DNA from: a virus
Taxonomy: Duplodnaviria; Heunggongvirae; Uroviricota; Caudoviricetes
Length of the DNA stretch: 19,634 nucleotides
Direction: 5' to 3' (one strand)
Virus record (IMG/VR): IMGVR_UViG_3300006226_000014
Span: 88,804-108,437 of that record
Shown here: positions 754 through 8,081 of the stretch, in pieces
Position numbering within the stretch: position 1 is the stretch's first letter
Layout of the letters: each line of letters begins with the position of its first letter
Translations under genes and position numbers: made by a program
The notes under the pieces: model-generated
Database searches by the model: none
What the model was told of the DNA's origin: nothing
Seen by the model: the letters and a program-made list of their open reading frames with translations, nothing else

Positions 754-2037
754 TCAATTTTTTAGATATTCTAATTCATATCGATTTTTATAAAAACACA
801 TAATAAAAATGGTACCAAAACTGATGATTATAGGAACAATTGTAAATAAAATTAGAATTGGAATTGAATTTGAAATATTAGTTTGAATAAATGATATAGT
901 TAATAAACCAACAATAAAATATGAAATACTTTCTCCTATCTTTTTTATAATCGCAGCCCCGGAAAAAATTAAACCTTCTATTTTTACACTATTCTTTTCA
1001 AAGTTTTCTTCAATAATATCAATAAAAAATAAATGAGAAGATACTTCATGTGGAGCCATCATTATTCCATTAATTATAAAACAAATAATAAGTAAAACTA
1101 ATGGAATAAAATTTAAATAAAGTCCAAAAAATAAAATTAAGCTACAAGATAAAATATAAATAATATTAGTTATTATTAAAACTTTAGATTTTTCAAATCT
1201 AAATATTTTAGGAGTAAAACCTATAGCTATTGTCATAGGAACCATAAAAGAAATAGTAAATAATCCAACTAAAAATGGAGAATGGAACCAACTAGACGCA
1301 AAAAATACTAAAGGTATTGTTACTAATGATCTTTTTAAGATCAAAAACATATAACTAAGTAATGAAATAATATAATTTTTAGATATAATATTTTTTAATT
1401 CTTTAATTTTATAATTGTTTTTTATAAAAATTCTTTCTTTTGTTCCTTTAAAACAAAGAATAAAAAATATCATTCCAAAAATTCCATAAATTGTCCAAGT
1501 AATTTGCCAATTAAATATATTTATTAATGGATATGTAATATTATTTATTAAAATAGTACAAATAAAAGCTCCATAAACTCTAAATAAATTTAATATTTGT
1601 CTTTCTTTTATATTATCAGTTATTCTTAAATTTAATGTAGAATGAGATATATTAATTCCAGTATATACAATTGTTGTTAGGAGATTATAAGTTATAATTA
1701 TATAAAGATATGATAAAAAATTTCCTATTCCAAAAGAGAATGGATTAATAAAAGTTAATGATAATATTATCATAAATGGAATTGATAAAAATAATAAATA
1801 AGGTCTTGATTTACCCAATTTAGTTTTAGTATTATCTACTATATATCCAAAAATGATATCACTAATAATATCAAATAATTTAGAAAAAGTAATAATTAAA
1901 ATTATTATACCATAAAATTCAGGACCAAAAGTTTGATAAAAGGGAAGAATAAAAGTCGCTAATGATGCATTAGCAATATTATAACCCATACTTCCTAATC
2001 CATAACTAATTTTTTCTTTTAAAGAAACTTTTTCCAT
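754..2037 (-). CDS. MFS transporter, glycoside-pentoside-hexuronide (GPH/MelB-like) cation symporter family
   Basis: N-terminus KEKISYGLG...FDIISDIIFGYIVDNTKTKLGKSRPYLL and ER..L..FR match the GPH signature. About 11-12 hydrophobic segments in 427 aa. Start overlaps the upstream stop (TAATG at 2035-2039). Confidence 0.88.
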   Translation of the reverse strand: MEKVSLKEKISYGLGSMGYNIANASLATFILPFYQTFGPEFYGIIILIITFSKLFDIISDIIFGYIVDNTKTKLGKSRPYLLFLSIPFMIILSLTFINPFSFGIGNFLSYLYIIITYNLLTTIVYTGINISHSTLNLRITDNIKERQILNLFRVYGAFICTILINNITYPLINIFNWQITWTIYGIFGMIFFILCFKGTKERIFIKNNYKIKELKNIISKNYIISLLSYMFLILKRSLVTIPLVFFASSWFHSPFLVGLFTISFMVPMTIAIGFTPKIFRFEKSKVLIITNIIYILSCSLILFFGLYLNFIPLVLLIICFIINGIMMAPHEVSSHLFFIDIIEENFEKNSVKIEGLIFSGAAIIKKIGESISYFIVGLLTISFIQTNISNSIPILILFTIVPIIISFGTIFIMCFYKNRYELEYLKN

Positions 2038-3038
2038 TAAGTTCTCCCGAATAATTGTTTATATGGAATTCCATATATAGATTTGTACACTACATCATTT
2101 ATAACATTATTTTCAGCATTACAATGCATATAAGGTTCTAAGCTTTTTCCACTTAGAGCTGATCTAATAACTCGTATGTTAGTAAATAACGTTTGAAATA
2201 CTGGTACTTTTAAGTCAACTAATGATAATGATAGATACAACAAATCAAAAGCATCTCTATCTTCTTTCTTATTTACTGATTGGAAATTAGCATCTTTGAA
2301 CTGTTGAATTACTTCATCTATTGTCACGTTACTATCTGCTACTTGTTGTAAGTAATCTCTGCACAATACTTTAATGTTGTTCCCAAACTTAGCTTTCTTC
2401 ATAAGTAGAGTACCTACAATATTATCACTTTTGTCTCCAAACAATGCCTTATATAGAATGTTAGCCGCAATAGTCGGCTTAAATTGGAATAGCTGTTCAA
2501 ATTGACTAACAGTAAATGGTTTATCGAAATCCCCGTTAATCATATGTACTATAACATTAGGTTTGTCATGGATATAACCAGCAAAATCATAGTCAGTAGT
2601 TATCAAAGCTACATTTTTGCATGTCGACATGAACTTCCAACCATCTTTGATCTGAGCAATTAGTGGTTCAACATAGTCATCAGCTTCATACTCATCTGAA
2701 TAGAGTAACTTAATACTGTCCCCACGATATAAGTAGTACTTACGAAATAACTCGATAGTTTCTAAGTAAATAGGAGAGTATGTTCTGTTTGCTTTATAGT
2801 CAGATAAGATTTTCTTTCGTTCATTAATTGAATAGTAAAAGTTCTTTGATTCACCTAAATCTGAGTAAGACACTGGATCAAATAGTATATACAAAATGCC
2901 GTCTTTATTGAGGCGTGACTTAACTTCACCTTCTACATAATTGATCATCCGTTTAATTACGTCGAGTGAAGTTTTAGCTGTTTTCTTTAGGCGATAAAAT
3001 AGACTGGCGCTGTCTAAAATGATATAGTCGTATAGCAA
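2037..3038 (-). CDS. 5'-3' exonuclease / flap endonuclease (PolI N-terminal, T4 RNase H / T5 D15-like)
   Basis: Motifs IILDSASLFYR, FD, YKANR, EADD, LITTDYDF and ALFGDKSDNI. TTG start with AAAGGA 7 nt upstream. Confidence 0.9.
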   Translation of the reverse strand: MLYDYIILDSASLFYRLKKTAKTSLDVIKRMINYVEGEVKSRLNKDGILYILFDPVSYSDLGESKNFYYSINERKKILSDYKANRTYSPIYLETIELFRKYYLYRGDSIKLLYSDEYEADDYVEPLIAQIKDGWKFMSTCKNVALITTDYDFAGYIHDKPNVIVHMINGDFDKPFTVSQFEQLFQFKPTIAANILYKALFGDKSDNIVGTLLMKKAKFGNNIKVLCRDYLQQVADSNVTIDEVIQQFKDANFQSVNKKEDRDAFDLLYLSLSLVDLKVPVFQTLFTNIRVIRSALSGKSLEPYMHCNAENNVINDVVYKSIYGIPYKQLFGRT

Positions 3039-3059
3039 TGTTCATCCTTTAAAATTAGC

Positions 3060-3089
3060 AAAAAAGGCCAACTAGCCTATCTTGCCTTT
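3060..3089 (-). terminator. putative intrinsic terminator/attenuator hairpin
   Basis: Minus strand AAAGGCAAGATAGGCTAGTTGGCCTTTTTT: stem AGGCU/GGCCU with loop AGUU, then a U tract. An alternative pairing of AAAGGC with GCCUUU is possible. Confidence 0.5.
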
Positions 3090-3095
3090 AAAGAG

Positions 3096-3105
3096 TATAT
3101 TAACA
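3096..3105 (-). promoter_or_regulatory. class 2 promoter motif (TG-T-TAATAT extended -10-like)
   Basis: TGTTAATATA on the minus strand, in the intergenic region upstream of the exonuclease. Confidence 0.5.
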
Positions 3106-6438: not shown

Positions 6439-6739
6439 CAGTAGGTATGCCTCGTTCTATGCAGTCATTACAATACCAATCATCATTCGGCTGTGCTACA
6501 CCTTTCTTAGTTTGTCGACATATATCACAAACACGTTCTATATTTGGATCAGTTAGTTCTCTAATGATCTTAATCGAGTTGTCTAAATTGTCAAAAAGTG
6601 AGTCACTGCCAAACTTATCATATAGCCAGTCTTTAAGTTCTTCAATACGACTAATAGCTTCATCTTTATATGATGACTTAATTTCCCAGGTACCTTCCTT
6701 TAGAGTGCCTTCTTGCAGAATCTTTTCAAATGAGTGCAT
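6428..6739 (-). CDS. small protein with C-terminal C4 zinc finger; possible internal head protein
   Basis: CDIC...YCNDC at the C-terminus. I moved the start from 6769 to 6739 because ATG 6739 overlaps the upstream stop (TAATG) and has GGGTGG upstream, giving the N-terminus MHSFEKILQEGTLKEG. Confidence 0.65.
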   Translation of the reverse strand: MHSFEKILQEGTLKEGTWEIKSSYKDEAISRIEELKDWLYDKFGSDSLFDNLDNSIKIIRELTDPNIERVCDICRQTKKGVAQPNDDWYCNDCIERGIPTATN

Positions 6740-6975
6740 TAACCACCCATTTCGCCAGTTTGTCGCCAATCATCATCATAGCTACTATTTAGTCTCATTG
6801 CTGCTAAAACGGCACCAACTGCTGCGTCTCTTGCTATGTCTAATTCTGCTTCAGAATAAAAGTTTTTATCAGCATAAGTTTCTTCAACCCAATCTAAAGC
6901 ATATTTTTCCCAATAGTCTTTATCAATAGATTCTTTGAGCTTAGCTGATTCGTATAGTTTTTCATATGTATTCAT
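6739..6975 (-). CDS. small acidic protein; possible internal head protein
   Basis: 78 aa with N-terminus MNTYEKLYESAKLKES, preceded by the class 1 motif. Confidence 0.7.
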   Translation of the reverse strand: MNTYEKLYESAKLKESIDKDYWEKYALDWVEETYADKNFYSEAELDIARDAAVGAVLAAMRLNSSYDDDWRQTGEMGG

Positions 6976-6990: not shown

Positions 6991-7021
6991 AAAAAAGCTC
7001 AGACCGTGAGACCTGAGCTTT
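6991..7021 (-). terminator. intrinsic terminator
   Basis: Perfect 9-bp inverted repeat AAAGCTCAG/CTGAGCTTT (6994-7002 / 7013-7021), extended by G-U, U-G and C-G pairs around a UCAC loop, ending in U6. Confidence 0.85.
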
Positions 7022-7061
7022 ATTAGGGAGGTAAGAGATGTAGATTATGTTGCCATAACCT
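6991..7061 (-). ncRNA. candidate 71-nt small RNA with an anti-RBS seed
   Basis: Extended -10 (TG-T-TAATAT) predicts +1 at A7061, the first base of the 8-bp hairpin AGGUUAUG-GCAA-CAUAAUCU. A 20-nt linker ACAUCUCUUACCUCCCUAAU follows, then the terminator. Confidence 0.55.
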
Positions 7062-7066
7062 TGTAT

Positions 7067-7076
7067 TATATTAACA
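7067..7076 (-). promoter_or_regulatory. class 2 promoter motif (extended -10)
   Basis: TGTTAATATA(AT) directly after the stop codon of 7080-8081. Confidence 0.55.
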
Positions 7077-7079
7077 TCT

Positions 7080-8081
7080 TTATTTTATTTTTCTAGTAAA
7101 ACTTAGATAAGTCTTACTGTGATCTCCTACCCACTTGAGTGAGAGCTGTCTTTCTTCTGAAATATCCCAAGGATTATTTTGAGATATACCCGAAACAACC
7201 ACATTAAATCCGATAGGTGTTGGTGTACATCTTAAAGTCATTCCAACATCTTCTGGTGTTTGTGTTACAGATAAATCAGCATTAAGATTAAGAATAGTAT
7301 CATCACCATCTTGAGTAATTTCTCTAATAACAAAGTGATAGTCAGGATTATCATATGAGAATAATATGACGCGGCCTTGATATTCTCCGCCCCATTGTCC
7401 GATAAAGAGGTCCATATGCCAACCAGTACCGAGTTCGAGGAAACGACCATTTCTAAGTTCTGGAACAAAATTATATCTAGCTTGATATTCTATAAGTGAA
7501 GAATAAGCATCATATACTTCGATTGCTGTTACTAATTCTTTTGATAGGCATTGATCGCCTTTATACCAACCATCGAACTCCCAGCCCCATGGTTCATAAG
7601 CTGTGAATATAACTTCAGTACCATTCTTAACTTCAGCATGTGCTGGTGTTGCATATGCTCCTGAGTTGATAGCATCAGCTGGTACAATAACTACATTAAA
7701 GCCAGTCATTCTTACTGGAATAGTTACTGCGATCTTTCCTTTGATGAACTTAATAGTTGTTGGTTCTTCAATATCTTCACCAAAAACGCCAGGCATTGTG
7801 AGAATCTTAGCAGCCTCTTTTATGCTGTCGGCTACTACTGAAACTGGAAAGTCACCATCTGGTGTTGTGAAATAGCCAGTGTATTGATTAAGGTGCTTAA
7901 CCTCTTGTGGATGATGCTTGTGGTCATGCTTAATTGTGAACTGTTCCATGTGATTAGGATCAGCTATTGGTTGACCAGGAATATGAAAGCCAGGAGGTCC
8001 AGGAAAGTGGGCCCCTCTTGCTGGTCCAGGTCCACCATGTCCAACAAAACCAGCATCTGACGGATGTCTTTTATCTGCCAT
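7080..8081 (-). CDS. probable virion surface/decoration protein with a divergent InlB B-repeat-like domain
   Basis: VKNGTEVIFTAYEPWGWEFDGWYKG...VTAIEV...IEYQARY matches the 'G..V.l.A.p..Gy.F.gW' repeat pattern. His/Gly/Pro-rich N-terminus. SD TAAGGAG. Confidence 0.5.
   Translation of the reverse strand: MADKRHPSDAGFVGHGGPGPARGAHFPGPPGFHIPGQPIADPNHMEQFTIKHDHKHHPQEVKHLNQYTGYFTTPDGDFPVSVVADSIKEAAKILTMPGVFGEDIEEPTTIKFIKGKIAVTIPVRMTGFNVVIVPADAINSGAYATPAHAEVKNGTEVIFTAYEPWGWEFDGWYKGDQCLSKELVTAIEVYDAYSSLIEYQARYNFVPELRNGRFLELGTGWHMDLFIGQWGGEYQGRVILFSYDNPDYHFVIREITQDGDDTILNLNADLSVTQTPEDVGMTLRCTPTPIGFNVVVSGISQNNPWDISEERQLSLKWVGDHSKTYLSFTRKIK

Follow-up and report, generated by a model that had tools for sequence, protein, structure and literature searches.

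A candidate small RNA gene with an invariant anti-ribosome-binding-site seed between stop codon and terminator in a sub-clade of jumbo phages

What is the role of a short intergenic stretch that lies between the stop codon of a phage gene and the terminator of the same gene, and that contains a promoter-like box, a hairpin and an open CU-rich linker complementary to a complete ribosome-binding site (RBS)? This question is raised by a locus in a 19,634-nt stretch of DNA, here referred to as the window, which covers positions 88804-108437 of an IMG/VR record (G000) of an uncultivated phage with a length of 108 kb and an estimated completeness of 33%. Relatives of G000 are jumbo phages of 260-390 kb with large tRNA sets. 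From position 1 to ~8100 of the window all real genes are situated on the minus strand, in agreement with an independent gene call, and most of the neighbouring proteins are without family assignment. Upstream of the locus, a gene of unknown function in a structural region (7080..8081, minus strand; TAA stop at 7082-7080) encodes a 333-aa protein and carries an ACTAA late-type box and an AAGGAG Shine-Dalgarno (SD) sequence as start signals. This protein has 52 homologues, whose MAG labels hint at a Clostridia host. Downstream, a 78-aa gene (6739..6975, minus strand) starts directly behind the terminator of the locus, with a ACTAACTATT box at 6985-6976 and no SD. Both ORFs were recovered by the independent gene call of the G000 record. 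A 160-aa ORF on the plus strand (6447-6929), antisense to the 78-aa gene and to a 103-aa gene, has neither SD nor start box, is absent from the independent annotation and is probably spurious. Within the gene region at 754-2037 (minus strand), positions 1001-2000 have a GC content of only 19.5%, compared to ~36% around them.

The predicted RNA unit corresponds to the minus strand at 7061-6991, between the 333-aa stop codon and the terminator of that gene. A promoter-like box, TGTTAATATA (7067..7076), starts 4 nt past the stop codon, and its geometry predicts a transcription start at 7061. From this position on, the unit consists of a 5' hairpin (7042..7061) with 8 bp (7 Watson-Crick pairs and one G-U) and a GCAA loop, a CU-rich linker of 20 nt (7022..7041), and an intrinsic terminator (6991..7021) with a 12-bp stem, a 4-nt loop and U6 (stem-loop 7021-6994, U-tract 6996-6991). 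The terminator is common to the RNA unit and the upstream 333-aa gene, forms the predicted 3' end of the RNA and was found in all four copies described below. While the linker as a whole is unpaired in the minimum-energy fold and in the centroid, the 13-mer AUCUCUUACCUCC within it (7039-7027), referred to as the seed, is unpaired in every fold computed and invariant in three lineages. An earlier, sequence-only reading of this DNA had described the hairpin with GCAA loop, the open linker and the terminator, and they fold as described on the minus strand at 7061-6991; its description of the linker complement also holds when read directly on this strand, since the reverse complement of the linker gives an SD (GGAGG) that is separated by a spacer of 6 nt from an ATG, with TAG behind it.

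Compared to shuffled sequences, the whole RNA unit has a fold z of -3.4, and the 5' hairpin plus linker alone reaches z = -2.6. The unit is the sole site in G000 and in the related phage G001 at which an anti-SD motif occurs at most 32 nt upstream of a strong terminator. An Rfam scan of the window returned no match at gathering score and sub-threshold matches only at loose E-values, and BLASTN of the RNA region against 50,697 phage records gave no match.

The assignment of a transcription start depends on the box. The start signals of G000 fall into three classes. In the first, a cassette of host type (TTGAAC-N17-TATAAT) is combined with a short leader that carries an SD; the second is an ACTAAnTAnT box directly adjoining the ATG, and the third is the motif GTTAAT(A/C)TA. 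The latter occurs in 18 copies in G000 (4.6 expected) and in 38 copies in G001 (6.75 expected), an over-representation of 4-6 times. An ATG starts exactly 5 nt behind the motif in 7/18 copies of G000 and 12/38 copies of G001, against an ATG background of 2%, and behind most of the remaining copies there is a short leader with an SD. These counts mark GTTAAT(A/C)TA as a genuine class of promoter-like phage elements with fixed geometry. Since boxes of this type are located upstream of the genes for DNA ligase, ThyX and both pieces of DNA polymerase A, the class looks like a replication-phase promoter class. TGTTAATATA contains TAATAT, a -10-like hexamer, plus a T that gives a TGn extension. If TAATAT is read as -12 to -7, +1 falls on the A of the abutting ATGs and, at the locus, on 7061, which is the sixth base after the box and corresponds to the position that the A of the start codon takes in copies of the leaderless type. 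A transcription start at 7061, the first base of the hairpin, has therefore good circumstantial support. A plain sigma-70 scan listed no promoter at the RNA unit due to the lack of a -35 element.

Several other loci with start signals of these classes deserve mention in their own right. A second TG-extended GTTAATATA box is situated in the window at 3104-3096 (minus strand), where a hairpin with a U-run follows within ~6 nt (3040-3104), succeeded by the SD and TTG start of an exonuclease-like gene (2037-3038); this hairpin may act as a terminator close to the promoter or stabilise the 5' end. Downstream of GTTAATATA boxes in G000, the intergenic stretches 31870-32200 and 66400-66625 are GC-rich, fold strongly and contain no ORF, and may represent further non-coding RNAs. 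The region 160001-180000 of G001 (L133) harbours a tmRNA in a cluster with 19 tRNA genes, several of which are preceded by GTTAAT(A/C)TA boxes, and at ~161194 of G001 (minus strand) such a box is followed by a GC-rich segment with ACCUCCCUUAA. In case of an early promoter cassette at 86685-86745 of G000, the spacer AATCTCCCTT is an exact inverted repeat of the leader SD region AAGGGAGATT, centred on the -10 element; other cassettes have this repeat only partly, and it could serve as an operator or sequester the SD.

Related loci were gathered via homologues of the two flanking proteins, of 401 aa and 333 aa. Used alone as a query, the 333-aa protein found nothing in viral contigs; the homologues were detected with alignment queries. 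A canonical RNA unit is located directly after the 333-aa homologue in three lineages: the window, L003 (5899-5985; neighbouring protein 60% identical) and L135 (1026-1102; neighbouring protein 64% identical), the contig of the latter ending inside the terminator. All three share the order TGTTAATATA, 5 nt, hairpin, AUCUCUUACCUCC, 5-6 nt and terminator, with a distance of 3-6 nt between box and stop codon. TGTTAATATA is identical in the three lineages, the extension T included, and so is AUCUCUUACCUCC (13/13); alignable coding DNA of G000 and G001 is ~71% identical. The hairpin starts at +1 in the window and L135 and at +2 in L003. Its stems, with 8 bp in the window, 7 bp in L003 and 8 bp in L135, are unrelated in sequence to each other and to the 11-bp stem of a fourth lineage, L137, and a hairpin of at least 7 bp at +1 to +3 has a chance probability of 0.015 per sequence of such composition. 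Likewise, the terminators of the three canonical copies are three different sequences, all of which still pair. The base 5' of the 13-mer is C in the window, U in L003 and C in L135, so that all three seeds can pair with the G of AUG; complementarity to SD, spacer and AUG is complete in the three canonical copies, in case of L003 with a G-U opposite the G of AUG.

L137, with a neighbouring protein 56% identical, contains a degenerate copy without box, which comprises the 11-bp AU-rich hairpin, an open CUCCCUU stretch and a terminator. Together with the three canonical loci it makes up the four nearest lineages for which the flank is available. Relatives with an identity of 55% or less have a plain terminator only at the corresponding spot, and nine further homologue loci showed only plain terminators or ended without flank. 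Due to the plain terminator in these more distant relatives, the RNA unit looks like an insertion of ~55 nt ahead of a pre-existing terminator that was kept in one sub-clade; its absence from them also implies that it is dispensable for this phage type.

A covariance model built from the window alone recovered L003 (25.3 bits, E 4e-4), L137 and L135. In the resulting alignment, which comprises only four sequences and was fitted to the structural model, 13 of the 18 pairs change on both sides, a value reached by 0/500 shuffles, and 98.3% of the cells are paired, compared to 53% at most for slid partners. Compensatory stem changes in related phages, which the earlier reading had put forward as a check, are found in L003, L135 and L137. 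Anatomy, conservation and stem covariation are in this sense direct observations, as is the box as a repeated element with fixed position. Within the five phage records searched with a covariance model (R2; G000-G004), the matches in G004 are generic hairpin-plus-terminator gene ends without the seed, and a match in G003 is seed-like (11/13) but has no proper terminator and lies in an ambiguous context. Other scans were rejected: the 13-mer combined with a T-run gave more than 110 matches, almost all of them antisense of ordinary gene starts, the box-plus-seed pattern retrieved only G001 and one chance match (L154), and shared 12-mers between intergenic regions were too noisy.

A different structured element was observed in G002, a relative without the 71-nt unit. 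At ~152419-152600 of this genome (L163:12419-12600, plus strand), a candidate RNA of ~165 nt features the GTTAATATA box, with a hairpin placed at +1 and with CUUACCUCC located 5 nt ahead of a strong terminator. It has a fold z of -5.5 and no Rfam match, and its anti-SD pairs with an internal GAGGUGA in the minimum-energy fold. No convincing phage target was found for this RNA (best value -17.4).

Which messages could be recognised by the seed? As already noted by the sequence-only reading for the window, no matching target occurs elsewhere, and this extends to the whole 108-kb record, in which the complement of the linker 20-mer has no other site with at most 4 mismatches. A near-exact complement is likewise absent from G000, G001 and three further relatives, with 33% of the G000 genome and 60% of the G001 genome covered by sequence. 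The 13-mer seed itself occurs once per genome. Matches to GGAGGTAAGAGAT with up to 2 mismatches in five phage records remained at control level.

All start regions (128 in G000 and 252 in G001) were ranked by their duplex energy with the seed. The start region of G000 35645-36019, encoding a 124-aa membrane protein with an N-terminal hydrophobic segment, reaches -24.0 kcal/mol with 10 + 5 pairs from SD through AUG, which is matched by 1/100 flank-shuffled seeds. The first of the 252 start regions in G001 belongs to a basic protein of 128 aa (-20.6 kcal/mol; equalled by 16/100 shuffled seeds). Its GC-rich orthologue in G000 (75046-75429), which sits behind an early promoter cassette, is the fifth of 128 with -16.2 kcal/mol, and the orthologues in G002 and G003, both without the 71-nt RNA, have other spacers and reach only -7 to -10. 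This pattern of two against two genomes fits co-evolution and could equally reflect shared descent. The energies of the candidate targets are only moderately better than those of the controls, and since any CCUCC pairs with many SDs, target prediction is unspecific. The proposal of a trans-acting, RBS-occluding sRNA is in this respect borne out in part: the layout is real and conserved, but a perfect target is lacking in the covered parts of the G000 and G001 genomes, and the start regions complementary to the seed are moderate candidates (-24.0, -20.6 and -16.2 kcal/mol) without a near-exact site among them.

Since GGAGGUAAGAGAUG is widespread as a natural RBS among phages and bacteria alike, a host target is equally possible. 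The exact 14-mer has at least 121 matches in bacterial genomes, and 79 among those listed are true gene starts from many phyla; with no host to narrow them down, these matches are uninformative. As an anecdotal observation, the exact 14-mer GGAGGTAAGAGATG is the ftsH RBS in three Bacillaceae (L209, L244 and L285) among the matches listed. Pairing in cis was considered and rejected, given that the seed pairs only weakly (-5 to -10 kcal/mol) with the RBS of the parent or downstream gene; for the RBS of its own 333-aa gene the values are -7.4 to -9.2 kcal/mol in the four lineages. The weak pairing with both RBSs argues against autoregulation in cis.

We propose that the locus is a gene for a small non-coding RNA of ~70 nt that is placed between stop codon and terminator and masks RBSs in trans, a reading to which we assign an even chance. 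The element as such represents a real, clade-specific phage sRNA candidate. From the features described above we infer the transcript itself, its timing, its target and the repression as follows. Transcription would start at ~7061 from the TG-extended GTTAAT(A/C)TA box, a class that is also found ahead of replication genes. The hairpin beginning at the first base would protect the 5' end of the RNA, and terminator hairpin and U-tail would make its 3' end, leaving the invariant 13-14 nt of AUCUCUUACCUCC single-stranded between the two hairpins. The seed would then pair with SD (GGAGG), 6-nt spacer and AUG of one or few mRNAs, and binding of the 30S subunit would be blocked. The most plausible targets are early messages, i.e., G000 75046-75429 and/or 35645-36019. 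With such targets, the RNA would act as a switch that turns early proteins off once the replication-phase promoters fire.

Other readings of the locus have to be weighed against this proposal. The unit might be a 3' UTR element of the 333-aa mRNA without its own promoter, from which a small RNA is cut or which acts in cis on stability or translation, for instance by an icaR-like 5'-3' pairing. Its location, entirely confined to the stretch from the stop codon to the terminator of this gene, is in good agreement with such an element, chance alone would give about 4.6 copies of the box per genome, and L137 contains hairpin, C-rich stretch and terminator without the GTTAATATA box, which indicates that an own promoter is not universal. 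However, three lineages that have diverged from each other carry the same TGTTAATATA, with the hairpin always situated at +1 or +2, and the cis version is further opposed by the poor pairing of the seed with the parent RBS in all four lineages. We regard a 3' UTR element as rather unlikely. ACCUCC, which the linker shares with the 3' tail of the 16S rRNA, allows for the different idea that an abundant mimic of this tail titrates SD-led messages globally, whereby host and early-phage SD messages would be soaked up and ribosomes shifted to SD-less, probably leaderless, phage mRNAs. Many genes of this phage indeed have a promoter-like box abutting the ATG and no SD, L137 retains only the anti-SD core, and the longer candidate RNA of G002 has CUUACCUCC at the same pre-terminator position. 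A generic sponge has, however, no need for the 8 nt 5' of CCUCC that are invariant in three lineages as well; many phage structural genes use strong AAGGAG SDs and would be hit too, and stoichiometric titration would require very high RNA levels. We therefore judge global titration to be improbable.

The order of promoter, short RNA, strong terminator and further genes would also fit a by-product or control site of antitermination comparable to lambda 6S or StxS, with the linker as a nut/put-like signal. The conserved linker contains CUCUUAC, which we take to be the core of the lambda nutR boxA, and the second box of the window (3104-3096) also precedes a hairpin and a U-run before a gene. As known for StxS, such terminated RNAs can also act as regulators (PMC7547250). 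The genes downstream, however, have boxes of their own next to the ATG and lack an SD, the downstream gene differs between lineages (78-aa in the window, 401-aa in L003), and the conservation of CCUCC would be left unexplained, which makes antitermination very improbable in our view. We give even less credence to a functional plus strand, on which a strong SD would drive a start-stop or mini-ORF similar to the lambda bar-type minigenes. The plus strand of the window does read SD, 6 nt, ATG and TAG, and the equivalent strand has ORFs of 3 codons in L135 and 10 codons in L003, but peptides and ATG position vary between the lineages, neither a promoter nor a gene lies nearby on the plus strand, the orientation of both the conserved box and the U-tract is that of a minus-strand transcript, and in case of the G002 variant the opposite strand lacks a start codon. 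Finally, an ordinary terminator region with a TATAAT-like box and CCUCC could have arisen by chance in this AT-rich DNA, where the z of the single hairpin is only about -2.6; conservation and covariation across lineages contradict this explanation, which we consider the least probable of all.

The layout of the putative small RNA is already known in bacteria, where CU-rich anti-RBS sRNAs have been described. The double-hairpin or toxic sRNAs of Burkholderia (RF02278, Betaproteobacteria toxic sRNA) and the Neisseria NmsRs have a length of ~57-67 nt and carry one hairpin at the 5' end and another as terminator; the CU-rich stretches that they leave unpaired correspond to the reverse complement of RBSs, and predicted interactions concentrate on start regions (PMC5688073). 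Although this design of unpaired CU-rich anti-RBS stretches is the same, the double-hairpin sRNAs are chromosomal and multicopy and usually have two CU-rich stretches, whereas the phage RNA unit has one. The window scores 21 bits against the RF02278 model (gathering score 50) with the first hairpin of the model deleted, and RF02278 is accordingly viewed as an analogue of the RNA unit, not as a family of which it is a member or relative. In case of RsaE/RoxS and similar C-rich sRNAs of the Firmicutes, a C-rich motif (UCCC) blocks initiation at G-rich SDs (PMC2790875). Similarities are the accessible C-rich motif directed against SDs and the hint at Clostridia given by the MAG labels of the homologues; those sRNAs are largely Hfq-independent. 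RsaE and RoxS have several seeds, in contrast to the single, phage-encoded one of the RNA unit, which reaches through the spacer to the AUG and has no Rfam match.

DapZ and MicL are type I 3'UTR-derived sRNAs of enterobacteria that depend on Hfq and have promoters inside the coding sequence. The RNA unit resembles them in having its promoter-like box at the 3' end of a protein gene and a terminator common with that gene, and these features of the type, end-of-gene promoter and shared terminator, are present by sequence in three lineages; it differs in that the box is located 3-6 nt past the stop codon and hence outside the coding sequence. Among phages, the c4 RNA of P1/P7 and other small RNAs mask an RBS and block translation of phage genes (PMC12197685). 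c4 is processed from the operon of its own target and controls immunity in a temperate phage, whereas the RNA unit belongs to a T4-like jumbo phage and would act on an unlinked target. T4 itself shuts off early messages at the SD/start region by means of the RegB endoribonuclease and the RegA repressor. If the early targets are right, the logic would be the same, with proteins in T4 and an RNA here, and the likeness concerns the function only.

To our knowledge, hardly any regulatory RNA of a virulent or jumbo phage has been described, and we know of none defined in uncultivated phages. Here, sequence comparison alone was sufficient to arrive at a small RNA candidate for which a class of promoter and the boundaries are defined, together with a seed that is invariant and with candidate targets that can be tested. 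The analysis also points to three start-signal classes in this phage clade, of which GTTAAT(A/C)TA appears to serve replication genes. In case the anti-SD core acts as a sponge, an anti-SD RNA would be linked to leaderless phage translation, which would amount to an RNA-based translational takeover. In case the early-gene targets hold true, the small RNA would be an RNA counterpart of the early-message shut-off by RegA/RegB of T4.
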